From a virus, in IMG/VR virus record IMGVR_UViG_3300045988_095964: DNA of 64,000 nucleotides; one strand, given 5' to 3'. The position numbers were made by a program, and so were the translations under genes. Under the pieces are notes generated by a model. It had not been told where the DNA came from and did not search any database. It saw only the letters and a program-made list of their open reading frames with translations. The first letter of the stretch is position 1. Each line of letters starts with the position of its first letter. Below are positions 1 to 57,945 of the stretch, piece by piece.

Positions 1-56
1 CCCAATGGACCCTCGTAGGTGGTGGTAGTGGTGGTGCATCTTCGGGTGGAATAGCT
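1..56. repeat. Left arm of >=56-bp perfect inverted repeat (truncated by window edge)
   Basis: The reverse complement of 909-964 equals 1-56 base for base. The match breaks at 57/908. The arm is coding and encodes ..QWTLVGGGSGGASSGGIA. Confidence 0.95.
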
Positions 57-476
57 CCCGGTACAGTGATATTCAACGACGAATTTTCGTTTGATGGCTA
101 CACCAGCGCAAATCCCGGTCAGTTGTCTCTCTTACAACCTATTCCGTTAGGGTCCATAGTGACTTTCATAGGATCGTATTATTTTGGACCTCCCGCCGAA
201 GAAATTTTACTTTCACCCGAAAGCCCTACATGGTCACTTACAGTAGCTTTACCCACTGGAGTTTCCAGTATCGCACAATATCTGAAAGACATGTTAGTTG
301 TGCAGAATCCTTCTGATGCAAATTTGGTAGTAGACAGGCAACATGCGATATACAAAATAGATGCCAAAAATCTCGTTAATGGCAAAATCAGTACAATAGA
401 TATGTACGCTACTGGAGCTTTGTTGTCTGATATGTATTTAACGATTGACCAAATTATCTATGTTGCGCAGGTATAG
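1..476 (+). CDS. 3' end of tail-fibre-like gene entering from upstream (first full codon at 3); tip variant A, in frame with the constant part
   Basis: The frame is open from the window edge (QWTLVGGGSGGASSGGIAPGTVIFNDEFSFDGYTS...YVAQV*). It has a Gly/Ser hinge typical of fibres. The ORF-track start at 66 is only an internal GTG. Confidence 0.6.
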   Translation, partial: QWTLVGGGSGGASSGGIAPGTVIFNDEFSFDGYTSANPGQLSLLQPIPLGSIVTFIGSYYFGPPAEEILLSPESPTWSLTVALPTGVSSIAQYLKDMLVVQNPSDANLVVDRQHAIYKIDAKNLVNGKISTIDMYATGALLSDMYLTIDQIIYVAQV

Positions 477-511
477 AATAAATCCCCCTCTTAATAGGAG
501 GGGGATTTATT
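477..511. terminator. Bidirectional hairpin between the two convergent fibre tips
   Basis: A 14-bp stem (477-490 pairs with 498-511, core aaatccccctc/gagggggattt) with a 7-nt loop. It sits exactly between the stop codons at 474-476 (+) and 510-512 (-). Confidence 0.7.
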
Positions 512-983
512 AGTTGTAAGCAGGATTATTGTCTGCGGATTTGTATATCCGTTTCACCGTTATCCTACTTCCAACAGGATAACTTTCACCGCCTCTTACT
601 ATGACTGTAAGCTGGCTAACTGTACAATCAATATCCATTGTACCATTGTCAGAGATTACACCTCCTTGGCTACCTCCAGCATTATAAAAGGCACTAAATT
701 GAACACTTGTAAGGTGCTCGCCAACAACTACATTAAAGGTGCGTCCCATGTTAACACCAGTAACGAAGAAACTATCTGGAGTTGTACCTACGTTTAGGTC
801 ATACATTATTGTAAGTATATCTCCATTTTGTAGACCACTTGGTAGATCAAATACGTCCGGAGCGTCATCATTTAACGAGACTTCGCCTGCCCACAAAGTA
901 GCCCCAACAGCTATTCCACCCGAAGATGCACCACCACTACCACCACCTACGAGGGTCCATTGGGACCTACAATAAGCTGAAAA
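510..983 (-). CDS. Start-less alternative fibre-tip cassette (variant B, silent in this orientation)
   Basis: The minus-strand frame reads FSAYCRSQWTLVGGGSGGASSGGIA-VGATLWAGEVSLNDD...NNPAYN*. It shares the repeat-encoded junction with variant A. An in-frame stop at 986-984 closes it, and there is no start codon upstream of the repeat. Confidence 0.6.
   Translation of the reverse strand, partial: FSAYCRSQWTLVGGGSGGASSGGIAVGATLWAGEVSLNDDAPDVFDLPSGLQNGDILTIMYDLNVGTTPDSFFVTGVNMGRTFNVVVGEHLTSVQFSAFYNAGGSQGGVISDNGTMDIDCTVSQLTVIVRGGESYPVGSRITVKRIYKSADNNPAYN
909..964. repeat. Right arm of the inverted repeat
   Basis: Exact reverse complement of 1-56. Confidence 0.95.
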
Positions 984-990
984 TTAGGTG

Positions 991-1022
991 TTTGGAAGTA
1001 TCAAAATATTTTCTTATATTTG
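991..1022 (+). promoter_or_regulatory. Class-1 phage promoter, copy P1
   Basis: tttggaagtatcaaaatattttcTTATATTTG. TTTGGAA sits 23 nt before TTATATTTG, the same register as four other copies. It fits the Bacteroides -33 TTTG / -7 TAnnTTTG consensus. Confidence 0.65.
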
Positions 1023-3042: not shown

Positions 3043-5976
3043 ATGGCTTCATTAGTACAATTAAAGGGTGATACCCTTGCACGTTTTGAAAAGATAAACC
3101 CGGTGCTTCGTATCAAGGAGCCTGCACTTATTGCGCTGGACCCTGCGAACCCGACTAAGTATACCCACATGGTTATCGGCGACGGTAAGACCAAATTCAA
3201 AGATTTGCCGAAACTGAACTTGGGTGGCAGTTCCAGCTATGAAGATTTGGAGAATCTTCCCTCCATCGAAAATGTCCGACTTATCGGTGACGTGACATTG
3301 GATCAAATCGGTGCTGTACGTCAGGAAGATTTTGATAAACGGATGCCTATCGTCATCGACGTACTCGCTTCCGACTATCAGCAAAAGGTTCTTACCGCTT
3401 TGGACTCTATGAACAGGGACACTCCTGTTCCGACGTTTCTCAAGGTGGACGGATTGACGTTGTATGTTTGTGGGTGGCGTACCGTTGATTCCGACACGAT
3501 GCTATGGGTTACTGCACCGCTCGCAGTTAAAGGTGACGTGCTCGTTGAATTGGGGGTTACCTCGTATTCGGTCAATACGACGGATGGGTCTATCACTGCC
3601 CAAGATCAGATGCTCACCAAGGTTCTTAGTGAATCTGCATTGGTTCAGGAGATCGGTTCGGGCACTGACAAGGTAATGTCACAGGATGCTGTGACTAAAG
3701 TTCTGAAAACTCAGATCGACGCTTGCTTCGCGTCGGCTAAGAAATACACCGATGACAATATCATCGGGCATAATACGTCGGAAACCGCGCATATCGACAT
3801 TAGGAACTTGCTTAATTCATGTGTAGGATTGCCGACGTATGACGATACGGAGTATTCATTGACCTTTACTACTATCGACGGACGTAGATTGGTCATAGAC
3901 CTTCCTATCGAGCAACTCGCCTTACGGTATAACGTAGAGACTCAGAGTATCGAGTTTACCAACGCTGACGGTTCCGTTACGAGTATTCCCGTAGCTGCTT
4001 TCGTAAAGATTTACACAGGTTCTATCGGTTCTCAGATTCAGGTTAATATCGGTAACGATAACGACATACACGCTTCGATCCTCAAAAACAGCATCGACTG
4101 GGATTCTCTGTCGTTCGCCTTGCAGGAGAGAATCAACAGTCATATTTCCGCCGAGGAGTTTGCTACACAAGCTGTCCGTACAGACATTGAGCAAACTTTG
4201 TCTATCGAGGCTCAGAATCAGGCGTTGGAGAACATCGGTGCTGATCTGATGGTTATTGATCTTGTCAATGGTCAGGCGACACTTACCGATGAGCAGGAGG
4301 CCAGATTGTTGTCGAGTAAAGGAGTTATCTTGCGGGGTACGGTAAATGCAGGCAAGGAGGTACTTACTAAAATATATTTTAGTGATTATCAAGGAGGAGA
4401 TGAAGTAAGTTTCTATGCACTCCGAAACAAAGAGTTTTGTCTTAGGTGTTCTTATACCAAATCGACAAAAATTTTCAAGTATGTTACTGGCAACAGATGG
4501 ACCAATCCCACTTATGTTTCGACTGTTTATTCTCAGAACTTTTCTATGAGTGAACAGGCGCATGCGTTTGCAAATCTCGGTTGGAAGGTTCATGTGATCT
4601 CGGAGTCTGCTATTGGTTCCTCGGATGCAGTTTCGGACGATGAGAAAGCCGCACGTCTTTCGGCCACCGCCTTATTGGTGCAGGAGACGGGTGAGATGTA
4701 TATTTATGGGCATAATAGCACATCCACTCCGTCAGATCGCCGTTTTTATAGATTTCATGATACTAAAACATTAGCACTACTTAATGTTGTTACAACTACT
4801 GGGTTGATTACCCAACCTCCTTTTGTCAATATTTATGATGAAAATGCCGTTTCTTTTAATATTGACCAAAGTGGTGTTTCTAACGATAGGAAGAATAAAG
4901 CCTTGGGCAACATAGGTATTGATCTTGTTAGAATTCCGCACTCTCTTTTGGGTACTACACTGTCGGACGAGATGGCGAATGTTATCAATAATGCCCGAGG
5001 TATTATTTTAGTTGATACTCCATCCGGTTACAGTAATCCGTCGGTTTTCATTAAAGGCAATAATGTATCTGGGTCTTGTATCTTCGTAGGCTTTGTCACG
5101 GGAAATACGTATTCTATATTCACGCTTAACAAGTCTACAAAATTATTGTCGAGTATAAGTTCCGGTTTAACTTATGGAGGTTCGGTAAGATACGCCGAGG
5201 TTCAGAATTTAACCACATCGCAGCAGGATACGGCTTTGTCTAATATAGGTCTTGATTTTGTCATTGTAGATTACTCTGAATTAGTGACTACTTTATCCGA
5301 CGATAGACTGTCTCAGCTTGTAAATGCCAAAGGGATTATCTTGACTAATACTCCTGATGATTACATACGCTCAGTAGTATTTACTGCTGGGACAAAATTA
5401 GTTAGTACTATTACTTTTTCTTCTATCGAGAATTTTCAGGATATAAATTATATTGTTTTGAACATTCCGAATAAGACACTTAGCTTAGTTCAGACATCAA
5501 AGTTAGTAGTAAGTAATTTGAATCAGAATCTAACCAATACTCAAAAAGACACGGTATTGTCTAATATTGGGTTGGATTTTATACAGTTAGATTATTCTTT
5601 ACTGGGTACGACTTTAGATAATTCTACGGCTGCTCTTATTGAGAATGCCAAGGGATTGATTTTAACTAATGAGCCAGACAGTAGTCATTCTGTTATATTG
5701 ACAAGATCTACTGTTGTCAACAATATAATTTATTTCAATTCTTGGCGAGGTGTCAGTCTTGTAGATCAAATCGTTTATAATGTTGCCACTAAGGCACTAT
5801 CGCGAATTTCGAGTACAGACTTGCATTTTGATTCTGTAAGGTATAGTATATCTCAACATCTTACAGATGTTAATAAGCAACAAGCACGTACTAATATTGG
5901 GGTTCAGTCGGCAGATGAGTTGCTTGAGGATGCAGATTTTATTGCTTCACTGAAGGTAAAACTTGGAATTGAATAA
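3043..5976 (+). CDS. Long tail-fibre-like protein with tandem ~110-aa modules
   Basis: 977 aa. Six recurrences of a xxQxxAxxN(I/L)G motif typical of phage fibres: QALENIG, AFANLG, KALGNIG, TALSNIG, TVLSNIG, QARTNIG. Confidence 0.7.
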   Translation: MASLVQLKGDTLARFEKINPVLRIKEPALIALDPANPTKYTHMVIGDGKTKFKDLPKLNLGGSSSYEDLENLPSIENVRLIGDVTLDQIGAVRQEDFDKRMPIVIDVLASDYQQKVLTALDSMNRDTPVPTFLKVDGLTLYVCGWRTVDSDTMLWVTAPLAVKGDVLVELGVTSYSVNTTDGSITAQDQMLTKVLSESALVQEIGSGTDKVMSQDAVTKVLKTQIDACFASAKKYTDDNIIGHNTSETAHIDIRNLLNSCVGLPTYDDTEYSLTFTTIDGRRLVIDLPIEQLALRYNVETQSIEFTNADGSVTSIPVAAFVKIYTGSIGSQIQVNIGNDNDIHASILKNSIDWDSLSFALQERINSHISAEEFATQAVRTDIEQTLSIEAQNQALENIGADLMVIDLVNGQATLTDEQEARLLSSKGVILRGTVNAGKEVLTKIYFSDYQGGDEVSFYALRNKEFCLRCSYTKSTKIFKYVTGNRWTNPTYVSTVYSQNFSMSEQAHAFANLGWKVHVISESAIGSSDAVSDDEKAARLSATALLVQETGEMYIYGHNSTSTPSDRRFYRFHDTKTLALLNVVTTTGLITQPPFVNIYDENAVSFNIDQSGVSNDRKNKALGNIGIDLVRIPHSLLGTTLSDEMANVINNARGIILVDTPSGYSNPSVFIKGNNVSGSCIFVGFVTGNTYSIFTLNKSTKLLSSISSGLTYGGSVRYAEVQNLTTSQQDTALSNIGLDFVIVDYSELVTTLSDDRLSQLVNAKGIILTNTPDDYIRSVVFTAGTKLVSTITFSSIENFQDINYIVLNIPNKTLSLVQTSKLVVSNLNQNLTNTQKDTVLSNIGLDFIQLDYSLLGTTLDNSTAALIENAKGLILTNEPDSSHSVILTRSTVVNNIIYFNSWRGVSLVDQIVYNVATKALSRISSTDLHFDSVRYSISQHLTDVNKQQARTNIGVQSADELLEDADFIASLKVKLGIE
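4210..5907 (+). repeat. Intragenic tandem modules of the fibre gene (period 321-342 nt)
   Basis: The N(I/L)G codons occur at 4231, 4573, 4909, 5242, 5563 and 5893. Modules 3-5 also share LGTTLSD / A(K/R)GIILTNTP strings. Confidence 0.75.
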
Positions 5977-8144: not shown

Positions 8145-8342
8145 ATGGCTAAACAAGGATGCGATAACGACTGTATGACCTGCCCGACGCAACAGCAATC
8201 ATGTTGCGCCGTACTTATGGCCAAGAAAAACCAAGAACTCCTTATGGCGATTGCTACGGCTCTCGATCCTATCGTTAGGGAGGTTACGTTGGTTGCCCCA
8301 AATCTGGGCGGGGAGGAAGTCCCGGAGAAACCCAAAAAATAA
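8145..8342 (+). CDS. Small Cys-rich protein
   Basis: 65 aa, containing CDNDCMTCPTQQQSCC. Confidence 0.45.
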   Translation: MAKQGCDNDCMTCPTQQQSCCAVLMAKKNQELLMAIATALDPIVREVTLVAPNLGGEEVPEKPKK

Positions 8343-8795: not shown

Positions 8796-9097
8796 TGGAC
8801 AGTATTCTGATAACCCTATGCGCCGTACTGTTTAACGTGTCCGGCCTCGCAGAAACCGTAACGTTTCATATCGAGAGAAATGTTGTGGTAAACTGTTCGA
8901 AGTGCTTGACCTTTTGGACAGTGTTGGCGTATGGGGTTGTCAGTACCGACTTTTCCGTTCGAACGCTTGCCGTTGCCTTTGGGTGTAGTTACATGGCTTT
9001 GTGGTTAGAACTGGGTTTTTCATGTCTCAATTCACTTTACAACAGACTTTATGGGAAAATTTATTCCGGTGAAACCGAAAGCGGTAAAGAACATTAA
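8795..9097 (+). CDS. Membrane protein
   Basis: 100 aa with three hydrophobic segments and a TAATG overlap with the upstream gene. Confidence 0.5.
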   Translation: MDSILITLCAVLFNVSGLAETVTFHIERNVVVNCSKCLTFWTVLAYGVVSTDFSVRTLAVAFGCSYMALWLELGFSCLNSLYNRLYGKIYSGETESGKEH

Positions 9098-9803: not shown

Positions 9804-10055
9804 ATGGACGATAACACTAAATTCGGTATTTATTCCCGGTATGGGTATATTCCGAAACAGTCTGAGCCTCGAACCGCTAAACCTAAACCCGCGGGCTACA
9901 ATTTGGTAGAGGTTGTCGGTAATCGTGAGAGCGTCATTCAGTCGGCGCTCCCTAACCAATATGGATTACTGGTGTCGAAAAGAAAAGAGCTGATGCGCCA
10001 AGCGTGCTACGCAAACGGCGTAATTAAGCTCAAAATCAAACCTTACTACAATTAG
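9804..10055 (+). CDS. hypothetical protein
   Basis: An 83-aa ATG ORF downstream of P2. Confidence 0.5.
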   Translation: MDDNTKFGIYSRYGYIPKQSEPRTAKPKPAGYNLVEVVGNRESVIQSALPNQYGLLVSKRKELMRQACYANGVIKLKIKPYYN

Positions 10056-13082: not shown

Positions 13083-13751
13083 ATGGCTCTTGACTGTAAC
13101 AAAACCGACGAACAACTGGGCATAGAAATCGGCAAACTTCTTTCCGAAGCTGGTGTCGAAACCCCTTGCATCAAATCCGAGTTTTCCGACAAGGAGAAAA
13201 TTGAAATGATCCAAGCTGACTTTGCGCATATCATGCTGACACTCGGTTTGGCTCTCTCGGATGATTCCCTCCATGAAACACCGCGACGTGTCGCCAAGAT
13301 GTTCGTGCGGGAAATCTTTTGGGGACTCGACTACAAGAACTTCCCCAAGTGCACCACTATTGTGAACAAGATGGCCTATGATTCTATGGTAGTGGAGCGA
13401 CACATTAAGGTTACTTCCAACTGCGAGCATCACTTCGTTCCTATCCTCGGCGAAGCTACGGTTGCATATATTCCGAACGGTCGAATTTTGGGTCTCTCCA
13501 AGATGAACCGTGTAGTGGAATTCTTCTCGCGCCGTCCGCAAGTGCAGGAGCGTCTTGCCGAGCAAATCTATCTGGCACTGTCTTATATCCTTGGTACGCC
13601 GAGTGTGGCCGTCATCATTAAGGCGGAGCATTTGTGCGTTCGCACCCGCGGTGTAGAGGACTACAACAGTGATACTATCACTTCCAAGCTGGGAGGTGCT
13701 TTCGACGAAAGTTCCACCCGTGCAGAACTTATGCAACTTATCAAACAATAA
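13083..13751 (+). CDS. folE: GTP cyclohydrolase I
   Basis: Motifs SNCEHHFVPILGEATVAYIP, GLSKMNRVVEFFSRRPQVQERL and AEHLCVRTRGV match the FolE active-site signatures. Confidence 0.9.
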   Translation: MALDCNKTDEQLGIEIGKLLSEAGVETPCIKSEFSDKEKIEMIQADFAHIMLTLGLALSDDSLHETPRRVAKMFVREIFWGLDYKNFPKCTTIVNKMAYDSMVVERHIKVTSNCEHHFVPILGEATVAYIPNGRILGLSKMNRVVEFFSRRPQVQERLAEQIYLALSYILGTPSVAVIIKAEHLCVRTRGVEDYNSDTITSKLGGAFDESSTRAELMQLIKQ

Positions 13752-14382: not shown

Positions 14383-14639
14383 GGCTTATTTGTACCGTGA
14401 TCGTTGCAAGTATTTTGGCTCTTACGGAATGTTTCATTATTTTTTCGTATCTTCGCCACAAGAGATTCGAACGTGCACGGGAAGTAGAACACTACACTGA
14501 CTACACACATGGGAACTTGGTGATGCGTGTGTACAAAGCGGAGTTTGAATTTCAGGCAAAACGAGACATCCCTCTCTCCAAAATATTGGATGGGGGAGTA
14601 CTCTCTCAATACTATATGTGGATTTTATTCGAAAAGTAA
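14349..14639 (+). CDS. hypothetical membrane protein
   Basis: 96 aa with one TM segment (IGLICTVIVASILALTECFIIF). It overlaps the upstream gene by 34 nt, so the start is uncertain. Confidence 0.35.
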   Translation: MFGQDLSAIDIGLICTVIVASILALTECFIIFSYLRHKRFERAREVEHYTDYTHGNLVMRVYKAEFEFQAKRDIPLSKILDGGVLSQYYMWILFEK

Positions 14640-15106
14640 TGGCAACTGTAAATCAAACAACTCTGGACAAGTTACTGAACTTGGCCGCTTCGTGGCAGGT
14701 GTTCAACATTAAGGTGCACCAGTACCACTACAACATCAGCTCCTCCAATTTCAGGTCGCTCCACGCTCTTTTCAAAGAGTTGTACGAGGATGCCGACGAA
14801 CGGTACGACGAGGTTGCAGAACGTCTGCGCCAAATCGGTCAGAAAGTCGTGCTTTCGTGCGCTGACCTCGCTCGGCGGAGTGCTGTTTCCGACGATAACA
14901 GTGCGGCTACTCCCGAAGCTATGTTGCAGGGAGTGGTCGATTCGTTCGCCGCTATTACGACGCTTCAAACCGAGATTTGGTTCGAGAGCGACGAACAGAA
15001 GGACATGGTTACGAATGACCTCATGGTCCAGCTCAACAAGTATATCGACCTCAAGAACTGGATGGTTACTGCCCAAATGGGTAAAGAGGTCGTGCAAACC
15101 AAATAA
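14639..15106 (+). CDS. dps: Dps-family ferritin-like DNA-protection protein
   Basis: HQYHYNISSSNFRSLHALFKELYEDADERYDEVAERLRQIG carries the Dps ferroxidase H..H..D..E pattern. ATG at 14639. Confidence 0.8.
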   Translation: MATVNQTTLDKLLNLAASWQVFNIKVHQYHYNISSSNFRSLHALFKELYEDADERYDEVAERLRQIGQKVVLSCADLARRSAVSDDNSAATPEAMLQGVVDSFAAITTLQTEIWFESDEQKDMVTNDLMVQLNKYIDLKNWMVTAQMGKEVVQTK

Positions 15107-15117
15107 ACCCTACAACT

Positions 15118-15327
15118 ATGGACGCTAACGCTAAGAAAGTGTTGATTTGGATTGGTGTCGCTATCGCCGTCCTTATCGTCGGAACTGTGGTGTGGAATAT
15201 CTTGCCGAAGGGATTCCGCATCTACACAACTATCGGTTGGGTGCTGGGAGCCGCTGTCGGTTCGTTTGCCACCTACAAGGGCTACAAGTGGTGGCTCGAT
15301 AACGTTAAAAAGGAGGTAAAGAAATGA
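15118..15327 (+). CDS. Small two-TM membrane protein
   Basis: 69 aa, with hydrophobic segments VLIWIGVAIAVLIVGTVVW and IGWVLGAAVGSFA. Confidence 0.5.
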   Translation: MDANAKKVLIWIGVAIAVLIVGTVVWNILPKGFRIYTTIGWVLGAAVGSFATYKGYKWWLDNVKKEVKK

Positions 15328-15626
15328 CGACGTTCGATTTTTCCTATGCAATCGAACTTCTCCGGGAGGGAAGGTGCATTGCACGTACCGGTTGGGCCGG
15401 TCGCGGTCTTTTCGTATTCAAACAGGTTCCGTCGAGTATCGGAAGCGAGATCATCCCGAAAATGCAGTCGGTTCCGCAAAAGGCCAAGCAAGTCATCCTG
15501 CGCACGGTAGGTCATATCGACTATGAGAACCAGTGCGTTATCTACGATACGAAAACCGGCATCGCTAACAGTTGGGTCCCCTCGATCAGCGATATGTTCG
15601 CCGCAGACTGGTACGAGGTCGAATGA
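15324..15626 (+). CDS. DUF2829-family protein (Tad2-like)
   Basis: FSYAIELLREGRCIARTGWAGRGLFVF ... SWVPSISDMFAADWYEV follows the DUF2829 pattern (F..A...L..G..v.R.GW ... W.ps..D..a.DW). Confidence 0.7.
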   Translation: MTTFDFSYAIELLREGRCIARTGWAGRGLFVFKQVPSSIGSEIIPKMQSVPQKAKQVILRTVGHIDYENQCVIYDTKTGIANSWVPSISDMFAADWYEVE

Positions 15627-32276: not shown

Positions 32277-32816
32277 ATGGCAACTATCACACGGGTATTT
32301 GAGTTTGACGCCGCACACCGGGTAATGAATGAGCGCGTAAAGTGTTTCAACCTACACGGGCATCGTTTTCGGTTGGAGGTAACCTTTGACATTTCCCAAG
32401 AGTATTGGGGTCTTGGTTACCCTATCGACTTTAAGGAACTCAAACGAATCTTCGGCGGATTCATCGACCAATTTTTAGACCACGCCTGTATTCTTAATCC
32501 TCAGGATGACGAGATCATCAACATGTGCGACAAAAATAACTGGCGCATGTGGGTAATGGGTTTCTGCCTGCGGGATATTGACAAGAATCCCTCTGCTGAA
32601 AATCTGGCTGACGAATTATTCGTTTCATTCAAAGAACTGGCGACATTATGTCCCGAAAAGTTTACCATTAACTCGGTTCGGCTGTATGAGACGCCGAATT
32701 GTTGGGTTGATGTCAATTCGTCCGAGACCGAATTAACCGAAGCATTCCGACACTCTCTTACCAAGTGGAGGGAATCTATGGGTAACTTCGAATATGACGC
32801 GAGAAAATGCCAGTAA
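32277..32816 (+). CDS. queD: 6-carboxy-tetrahydropterin synthase (QueD / PTPS family)
   Basis: FEFDAAHRV...KCFNLHGHRFRLEV provides the His triad plus the catalytic Cys. Confidence 0.8.
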   Translation: MATITRVFEFDAAHRVMNERVKCFNLHGHRFRLEVTFDISQEYWGLGYPIDFKELKRIFGGFIDQFLDHACILNPQDDEIINMCDKNNWRMWVMGFCLRDIDKNPSAENLADELFVSFKELATLCPEKFTINSVRLYETPNCWVDVNSSETELTEAFRHSLTKWRESMGNFEYDARKCQ

Positions 32817-57234: not shown

Positions 57235-57945
57235 ATGGTCTCGGCAACACACGAAGCTATGAGTGAATATATTGGTTTGGAGTTTAGTGAACGCTTAACT
57301 CAATCGGAAGACAAATTCGCTTTATCAGGGTCTCCCTTTCATGGTGAACAAATGCTATCGGTTTCGGTCGAAACTCTTAACCGGCATTGGTACGGACATC
57401 TCGCTGGTTACGTTAACCGGCTTAACTCCCGGATTGACGAGGTGAATAAGTTGGGTGTTCGTGTGATAGAGGAATCTCTGATTTTTGCTGACTACACGTT
57501 GCAGAACTTAATGCAGTCGCGTGACGTGTGGGTACGCAATTACGCTTCGGGTGTGTATAATCATTTATTCTATTTCGAGGCACTCAATAAAGATTCTTTA
57601 TTACCGGATGAGTTCCGCGCTTTACTCGAAAAACATTTCGGCGACACCGAAAAAATGCAGGAAGCGTTTATGGCACAAGTCCGCATCAATATCGGTTCGG
57701 GCTATGTTTGGATGATGCACAATGATCAGCGTGGTGTACATTTTAAGTGGACCCCTAACCTGCTCAATCCTTTATGGGAGGACATCCCTCCTACGTGGAG
57801 AGGGAAACCACTGTGGTGTGTTGACCTGTGGGAACACGCATGGTATTTGGATCACCTTACGCTGGATTCTTACGTCAATAAAATTTGGGACACTGTTAAC
57901 TGGGAAGTAGTAACCGAACGCGCCAAGAAATATGGATTATTGTAG
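57235..57945 (+). CDS. Fe/Mn-type superoxide dismutase
   Basis: RHWYGHLAGYVNRLN, YNHLFYFEAL and DLWEHAWYLD align to the SOD signatures. All four metal-ligand positions (H, H, D, H) are present. Confidence 0.8.
   Translation: MVSATHEAMSEYIGLEFSERLTQSEDKFALSGSPFHGEQMLSVSVETLNRHWYGHLAGYVNRLNSRIDEVNKLGVRVIEESLIFADYTLQNLMQSRDVWVRNYASGVYNHLFYFEALNKDSLLPDEFRALLEKHFGDTEKMQEAFMAQVRINIGSGYVWMMHNDQRGVHFKWTPNLLNPLWEDIPPTWRGKPLWCVDLWEHAWYLDHLTLDSYVNKIWDTVNWEVVTERAKKYGLL

Follow-up and report, generated by a model that had tools for sequence, protein, structure and literature searches.

The left end of a 64,000-nucleotide (nt) stretch of viral DNA, IMG/VR record IMGVR_UViG_3300045988_095964 (here called the window, meaning the whole stretch analysed), carries the 3′ end of a putative tail-fibre gene and, on the opposite strand, a second coding cassette that has no start codon. 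Both are preceded by the same linker codons, which form a perfect inverted repeat. Here we describe this arrangement, a candidate DNA-inversion switch for the C-terminal domain of the encoded protein, and compare it with related loci. The following features make up the locus.

1–56, plus strand: left repeat arm, encoding the linker QWTLVGGGSGGASSGGIA of the expressed protein.
3–476, plus strand: 3′ end of the fibre gene (putatively receptor-binding), comprising the linker and tip A; the gene starts upstream of the window.
57–473, with its stop at 474–476, plus strand: tip A, from reading-frame analysis.
57–908, both strands: invertible segment of 852 nt (tip A, hairpin and tip B), delimited by comparing two related contigs (L056 and L002).
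477–511, both strands: palindromic hairpin between the stop codons, with 17-nt arms at 477–493 and 495–511 (94%).
510–908, minus strand: silent tip B cassette of 132 codons plus a stop (512–510), without a start of its own at the 5′ end.
909–964, minus strand: right repeat arm, with identical linker codons in frame with tip B.
965–986, minus strand: fixed right boundary, made up of the silent frame's TAA stop (986–984) and the seven sense codons (FSAYCRS) after it.
992–1022, plus strand: likely promoter of an HD-hydrolase gene (TTTG ... TATATTTG), outside the switch.

The two arms, separated by 852 nt, are complementary at 56 of 56 positions, as a first-pass annotation of this DNA had claimed; by simple counting, the odds of a perfect 56-nt match arising by chance within 1 kb are ~1e-28. 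The same annotation suspected that the repeat runs on beyond the window edge, which did not hold. A 92,664-bp gut-metagenome contig (L003; ENA ERZ28661459) agrees with the window at all 11,505 bases compared. Its copy of the repeat (8955–9010 and 9863–9918) measures exactly 56 nt, and the adjoining bases differ; the window therefore begins at the repeat's first base.

On the plus strand, an open frame entering at position 3 runs through the 18 linker residues into the 139-residue tip A (PGTVIFNDEF...YVAQV), and on the minus strand the same 18 residues lead into the 132-residue tip B (VGATLWAGEV...NNPAYN). BLASTP found no alignment between tips A and B, and the frames read as previously described, with a shared linker and unrelated tips. 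Also borne out was the description of the minus-strand frame as start-less and closed by a stop at 986–984, seven codons from the repeat: ATG, GTG and TTG are absent from these seven codons and from the linker codons of that frame, whose first in-frame start-type codon is a TTG at 896. The boundary at 965–986 is conserved in all loci of this phage lineage (lineage 1).

Only a 33-nt hairpin lies between the two stop codons, and the segment holds no further open reading frame (ORF), in agreement with earlier remarks on the length of the repeats and the absence of a chaperone gene. The hairpin itself had been noted at 477–511, with a stem length of 14 bp; its arms measure 17 nt. It folds with −26.6 kcal/mol (z = −5.6), is scored terminator-like on each strand, and would serve as a terminator in either orientation. 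The sole TAnnTTTG box (the Bacteroides −7 consensus) within positions 1–1300 lies on the plus strand at 1015, before the HD-hydrolase gene, and the intergenic region likely drives transcription of the plus strand, not of the minus-strand cassette.

Gene callers annotate a 128-aa gene in some contigs (L001, 9467–9853), corresponding to a start at TTG 896, so the minus-strand cassette could be read as an independent small gene rather than an exchangeable exon. We consider this very improbable: the open frame spans the whole linker upstream, a conserved stretch with the same sequence as in the expressed gene; no promoter-like site was found on the minus strand to the right of position 964, so that nothing faces the cassette; and the same tip is fused to the N-terminal part of the fibre in at least nine protein clusters.

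As the earlier annotation had anticipated, the sequence upstream of the window in related contigs (L003 and L002) supplies the N-terminal part of the fibre protein (N-part): a short conserved N-terminus, a module mid1 that occurs in several variants, and a module mid2 ending in TTQWTLVGG(G)SGG. Related contigs and two protein-database searches showed three forms of the protein after this first linker (hinge1). In the first, hinge1 is followed by tip C (241 aa); in the second, by module D (105 aa), to which tip A or B is attached through another linker, INSGASSGGIA (hinge2); in the third, a reduced form, both linkers are fused and lead directly into A or B. The fuller relatives (L008 and L010) keep an outer repeat (37 or 33 nt) apart from an inner repeat (33 or 26 nt), forming a nested system in which the outer repeat toggles C against D-x and the inner repeat A against B. 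Positions 1–36 of the window arm match their outer repeat and positions 31–56 their inner repeat, and the arm is an outer repeat (~1–36) fused to an inner repeat (~31–56), overlapping at GTGGTG. The earlier picture of a single repeat is corrected accordingly. Five linker variants were found, differing in the length of the GGT run, in an A/C single-nucleotide polymorphism (SNP), or in the deletion junction, and fusion at GGTGG/GTGGTG microhomologies has therefore occurred more than once.

Inversion products of this locus exist among natural variants. L056 is the exact inversion product of a window-type locus, with B on the N-part, A silent, and breakpoints inside the repeat. Compared with L002, 955 nt of L056 (arms included) align only when reverse-complemented, at 98.7% identity and without gaps, on a par with the flanks (98.6–99.0% identical), which stay collinear as far as the repeat arms on either side. 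Protein databases contain N-part–C, N-part–D–A and N-part–D–B, while direct fusions of N-part and linker form 62 protein clusters with A and nine with B. In two of the A/B pairs, the N-parts match without a single difference (100%; 338 and 326 aa), further pairs differ by 1–3 residues, and A and B were each found on at least five different N-part backbones. Together, these products support the earlier reading that inversion swaps the C-termini.

The nested relatives have inverted in the same way. In L008, C|B lies on the plus strand and D-A on the minus strand; outer inversion of this locus (2038 nt, 37-nt repeat) yields exactly L069, and inner inversion of L069 (918 nt, 33-nt repeat) yields L070. 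Thus, the nested system is represented by three of its four states and the two-cassette system by both. Between L091 and L008, the left flank has one mismatch in 7049 nt and the right flank two in 4784 nt, and deriving the L091 locus from that of L008 needs at least two inversions plus the loss of D; the flanks of L092, a window-type locus, are 99.97% and 99.83% identical to those of L091. Judged by these comparisons, inversions turn over rapidly when set against point mutations, and the same pattern suggests that individual phage populations may switch actively.

When inverted repeats are longer than k, a de Bruijn assembler has no means of orienting the segment between them, and the differences in orientation might in principle be assembly artefacts, all the more as the window begins exactly at the repeat and other contigs end or are cut within repeats. 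The chance of this explanation being right appears close to nil. The orientation is read-supported in several contigs assembled by MEGAHIT with k = 127 or 141, which exceeds the repeat length, and the orientation of those contigs is therefore not an artefact; the k141/k127 contigs include A-on (L002), C|A/B (L010), B/C|A (L091) and D-B/C|A (L070). In addition, each type of fusion is represented by dozens of independent protein clusters. The breaks themselves include the window start, IMG/VR contig 3300045988_067895 (L075), which ends in hinge1, and the 92,198-bp circular contig OMEK01000015.1 (L082/L084), which is linearised inside hinge2. Such breaks are expected for repeats near the k-mer length and are not evidence of heterogeneity.

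A second, unrelated Bacteroides myophage lineage of ~101 kb (lineage 2) carries a fibre N-part that is 98–99% identical to that of lineage 1; its capsid protein is SPO1/DAC19-like, with 49% identity to those of Bacteroides phages DAC19/20/22. The locus (L078, 5900–8600; also L077, L080, L085, L086 and L089) has tip E expressed and tip F silent, and in some members the arms are mismatched and appear locked. Its linker has the same amino acids (TTQWTAVGGGGA), encoded by different nucleotides, and forms a 40-nt inverted repeat before the silent cassette F; as in the window, a stop just a few codons ahead of the linker closes the silent frame.

Tips have been imported between the two lineages, and hybrids such as C(1–115)+A and D+E occur among the relatives, a mosaic evolution that is typical of receptor-binding proteins. 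This mosaicism shows ordinary shuffling between genomes, and it would fit an explanation in which there is no ongoing switch: the minus-strand cassette would be a spare part or relic, and the arrangements rare historical events fixed in lineages. In its favour, the comparisons are between samples only, and many genomes, L001, L004, L005 and L009 among them, have no left arm and appear locked. We nevertheless judge this explanation improbable, as arrangements differ despite flanks that are 99.96% identical and N-parts that are 100% identical, the arms remain perfectly identical and co-vary, and so many of the possible states (three of four nested, both two-cassette) were found. Silent cassettes, moreover, are intact, with no stops or frameshifts in 13 of 13 copies of B and seven of seven copies of A in related loci. 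The ratio of non-synonymous to synonymous polymorphism (pN/pS), a crude pairwise Nei–Gojobori sum, is 0.28 for silent B and 0.31 for silent A, consistent with silent cassettes being under purifying selection. Loss of the matching arm goes with visible decay: L086 has two mismatched hinge1 copies, and its A cassette, stranded behind tip C, has an internal deletion.

The source genome could be reconstructed as a 92,617-bp circle from overlapping loci (the window, L012, L014 and L003), and the gene for the HD protein (1047–1505) was found on many gut-metagenome contigs of ~90 kb. The phage encodes an SPP1-type portal, a Phage_capsid_3 capsid protein and a CIS-type tail tube, together with PolA, DnaB, a primase, 7-deazaguanine genes and a RecA-like protein. 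Among cultured phages, Bacteroides phage BS162P1 (host Bacteroides salyersiae) is the closest relative, with 82% identity of the capsid protein, and the source phage appears to be a virulent Bacteroides myophage. Membership of the Crassvirales, suggested by the first BLAST hit (cr108_1), was rejected on the basis of the portal, the capsid family, the tail tube and the kinship with BS162P1; the similarity to cr108_1 is due to a transferred piece of another fibre gene.

No recognisable invertase accompanies the locus. None of the called genes of the 92.6-kb circle matched the Pfam domains Resolvase, Recombinase or Phage_integrase, and tblastn and phmmer searches with Hin, Gin and XerD queries gave no match, with nothing below E = 0.9 for Hin and Gin. 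The first-pass statement that 64 kb contain no recombinase is thus upheld and extended to the whole genome, including the sequence upstream of the window, where an invertase might have been sought. A degenerate hix/gix-like consensus had zero matches in the window with three mismatches allowed, the arms being without such a pattern; an Mpi-like site was not found; and there is no serine or tyrosine recombinase domain within 6 kb of the lineage-2 locus. A RecA-like protein is encoded ~9 kb beyond the window end (PF00154, 1.7e-27).

The repeats themselves suggest how the exchange might work. Both outer and inner repeats support inversion and have no sequence kinship beyond GTGGTG, which the lineage-2 repeat does not contain, so that no core is common to the three repeat types. 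The recombination products found are all partner-specific, outer with outer and inner with inner. In every two-armed genome, both arms carry the same variant (GGT units, A/C SNP and junction type), and this co-variation therefore points to gene conversion between arms, since a fixed-core site-specific exchange would not homogenise them. In lineage-2 genomes with an imported lineage-1 tip and linker, the hinge1 copies are mismatched and form no detectable repeat. On this evidence, an inversion driven by homology is most likely, being favoured over, if unproven against, a dedicated invertase. The RecA-like gene, the arm co-variation and the lack of a common repeat core lend indirect support to RecA dependence.

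The same switch might instead be catalysed in trans, by an invertase of the Bacteroides host (of the tyrosine type or an Mpi-like serine type) or by an unrecognised phage protein that would act on a core inside the linker repeats. All classical tail-fibre inversion systems use an invertase (PMC9881135), about two-thirds of the phage ORFs have no Pfam match, GTGGTG is common to the outer and inner repeats, and the arms are short for RecA-type recombination. The missing serine and tyrosine recombinase domains, in the genome and near the lineage-2 locus, speak against catalysis in trans, as do the failure to find Mpi and hix motifs and the three repeat types without a common core. Furthermore, the number of GGT units varies in the arms, which would shift the spacing of half-sites, yet both states occur, and the arms are homogenised end to end, unlike after site-specific exchange. 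We therefore regard a recombinase acting in trans as rather unlikely, if the most serious of the alternatives considered here.

What the protein does was approached through structure prediction and genomic context. An AlphaFold2 model of tip B has a mean predicted local distance difference test (pLDDT) score of 76.5 and an eight-stranded all-beta fold. A search of PDB folds with tip B gave no match below E = 0.018; the weak matches are lectin- or carbohydrate-binding-module-type sandwiches and the C-terminal domains of the receptor-binding proteins of phages K and phi812. In BFVD, matches to tip B range from E 2e-7 to 3e-3 and include a 148-aa phage protein (E 2e-7), entries named 'tail protein', and, from the crAss-like phage cr111_1, the C-terminal part of a 611-aa protein (E 9e-7, template-modelling (TM) score 0.61). 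With the full-length model, the four best Foldseek matches in the PDB are receptor-binding proteins of the Staphylococcus aureus phages phi11, 80alpha and phi812 (E 2.7e-6 to 8e-5, TM ~0.12), in a model whose mean pLDDT is 55.6.

By sequence, tip B (513–908, minus strand; P0064 and P0188–P0191) is a near-orphan: HMMER recovered five relatives among 1.84 billion representative proteins, all of them of this fibre family or barely significant. GTDB genomes contained no relative of the fibre, and they therefore provide no prophage context or host-side clue. Neighbouring genes carry Mtd_N-type fibre N-termini. These observations suggest that the protein is likely a receptor-binding tail protein, a weak assignment that is structural and contextual in nature. 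The 'tail fibre' label given earlier is consistent with the structural matches to tail proteins and the Mtd_N neighbours, but it did not gain a Pfam or PHROG family match.

Taken together, we consider it fairly probable that the locus is a DNA-inversion switch, driven by homology, for the C-terminal and probably receptor-binding domain of a Bacteroides myophage tail protein. In this model, the constant part of the protein (N-terminus, mid1 and mid2) would end in a Gly/Ser linker, and an inverted copy of the linker codons would precede the start-less alternative tip on the opposite strand. Recombination between the identical linker arms would flip the 852-nt segment, such that tip B replaces tip A, with the central palindromic terminator serving both orientations. 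The driver would be general homologous recombination, together with gene conversion between the arms, through the phage RecA-like protein or host RecA. The window version would be a reduced two-cassette derivative of the nested four-module system, in which modules C and D were deleted at GGTGG/GTGGTG microhomologies, fusing outer and inner repeats into the 56-nt arm.

Several observations weigh against this reading. Both orientations were not found in any one sample, among contigs, one metagenome or IMG/VR, and contrasting states come from different samples. At 26–56 nt, the arms are close to the shortest that RecA-type recombination can use, which could keep rates low, and most phage genes are unannotated, so an unrecognised or host-encoded recombinase is possible. 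Neither Pfam (E <= 0.01) nor PHROGs (E <= 0.001) placed the full protein or the tips in a family, and the full-length AlphaFold2 model of the D-A fibre, with the low mean score given above, falls below 50 in tip A and dips at both linkers. Finally, an open frame of 244 codons passes through the arm in L003, but the true N-terminus (~100 codons) is out of frame. The L003 fibre gene has GGGG where its relative L083 has GGG, ~705 nt upstream of the window (L003 ~8245–8255), and the extra G splits it into an N-terminal ORF of 96–108 codons and an ORF of 379–402 codons that enters the window. The extra base could reflect either a genuine frameshift mutant or a mistake in assembly. A GGGG run is too short for a classical hypermutable tract.

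As in the Mu G, P1 C and e14 P segments (Gin, Cin and Pin, respectively), the repeats lie within the fibre gene, and a constant N-terminal part is combined with alternative, convergent C-termini; by likeness to Mu G and P1 C, the expected consequence of inversion would be a change of host range. The analogy to Mu G, P1 C and p15B drawn in the first-pass annotation is sound in principle, but the locus is not of the Gin/Cin type, as it has no invertase, consensus site or chaperone gene. Unlike in Mu G and P1 C, an invertase gene is found neither adjacent to the segment nor anywhere in this genome, and neither cassette contains a tail-fibre assembly (U/U′) gene. In contrast to the sites of the Gin/Cin types, the repeats are 26–56 nt of linker codons with no hix/gix-like consensus, and unlike those temperate enterobacterial systems, the phage appears virulent and infects Bacteroides. 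The nested inversions of multiple cassettes in L008, L069 and L070, with more than two C-termini, resemble p15B Min and the R64 shufflon (Rci). The crossover sites of Min and Rci share one consensus and are served by a dedicated recombinase, whereas here the two repeat pairs are unrelated, each recombines with its own partner only, and no recombinase was found.

In the sap locus of Campylobacter fetus, nested inversion is reportedly RecA-dependent, with general homologous recombination in place of an invertase, as Dworkin and Blaser are said to have described in 1997. L008, L069 and L070 share with it nested inversions between conserved coding repeats of alternative cassettes, whereas the window itself retains one fused repeat pair. 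The sap repeats, several hundred bp long, lie at the 5′ ends, and the moving element bears a promoter; in the phage, by contrast, the repeats are 26–56-nt linkers, 3′ exons move under a fixed 5′ part, the system is viral rather than bacterial, and a role for RecA is putative. With these differences, the sap locus may be considered the nearest mechanistic precedent known to us. Short conserved coding motifs, often rich in Gly, also serve elsewhere as homology patches for swapping receptor-binding modules: the His boxes of T-even fibres and the collagen-like repeats around VR2 of the receptor-binding proteins of Streptococcus thermophilus phages are recombination patches, and the linkers described here similarly mediate exchange between genomes. 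In those phages, exchange takes place between co-infecting genomes, whereas here the donor is inverted within the same genome and the intramolecular inversion would be reversible. A diversity-generating retroelement was considered and rejected, as the genome encodes no reverse transcriptase domain and the repeats are inverted and identical.

Bacteroides evade phages through phase-varying capsules and surface proteins. To our knowledge, the counterparts documented on the phage side are for the most part diversity-generating retroelements and, in temperate enterobacterial phages, fibre inversions driven by an invertase. Our literature search found no description of the inversion system reported here. 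Programmed tail-fibre inversions have been treated as a phenomenon of prophages with a recombinase (PMC9881135), and viral invertons in metagenomes have been described as poorly understood (PMC13501310). We see an even chance that the full description applies, namely a reversible, linker-coded switch that is free of a recombinase, nested in its full form, offers two to three tips, is portable between unrelated gut phage lineages, and has its arms kept identical by gene conversion. If the locus does flip within a population, abundant virulent gut phages would hedge their choice of receptor with two identical linker repeats and general recombination, a minimal design that is easily missed in annotation because no recombinase flags the locus, and that would be easy to copy for engineered phages with a switchable host range. 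Such loci also break or mis-orient metagenomic assemblies, and gene callers set the silent exon apart under the label 'hypothetical protein'.

Other parts of the genome have features of their own. A 977-aa protein (window 3043–5976) begins with an Mtd_N-like fibre N-terminus (MASLVQLKGDT...) and contains four or more internal repeats of ~115 aa (..NIGxDx..TLSD..AKGIIL..), and its counterparts in related contigs range from 602 to 1162 aa. Positions 3901–5213 share 82% DNA identity with gp079 of the Crassvirales phage cr108_1, and fibre segments have therefore been exchanged across phage orders. Between 16524 and 21117 lie 14 consecutive small plus-strand ORFs (71–189 aa) that all end in [DE][FW]x[DE]LF[LSDENG], for example SVEDFIDLFL; this array is a tandem paralogous family with no Pfam match. 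Genes for GTP cyclohydrolase I, PTPS, QueC and a QueE-like radical-SAM protein (window 13083–13751 and 32277–32816; L003 1761–2489 and 4882–5580) belong to a 7-deazaguanine pathway, which suggests that the phage DNA is modified. Further genes encode a ferritin/Dps-like protein (14618–15106), a Tad2-like protein (15324–15626), Tad2 being a family of anti-Thoeris proteins, and an Fe/Mn superoxide dismutase (57235–57945). Just past the window end, the DnaB helicase contains an intein bearing a homing-endonuclease domain (Hom_end_hint, LAGLIDADG; L012 11372–13684), and the primase (L012 14748–16616) looks intein-interrupted too, with a CFAGETRV motif.

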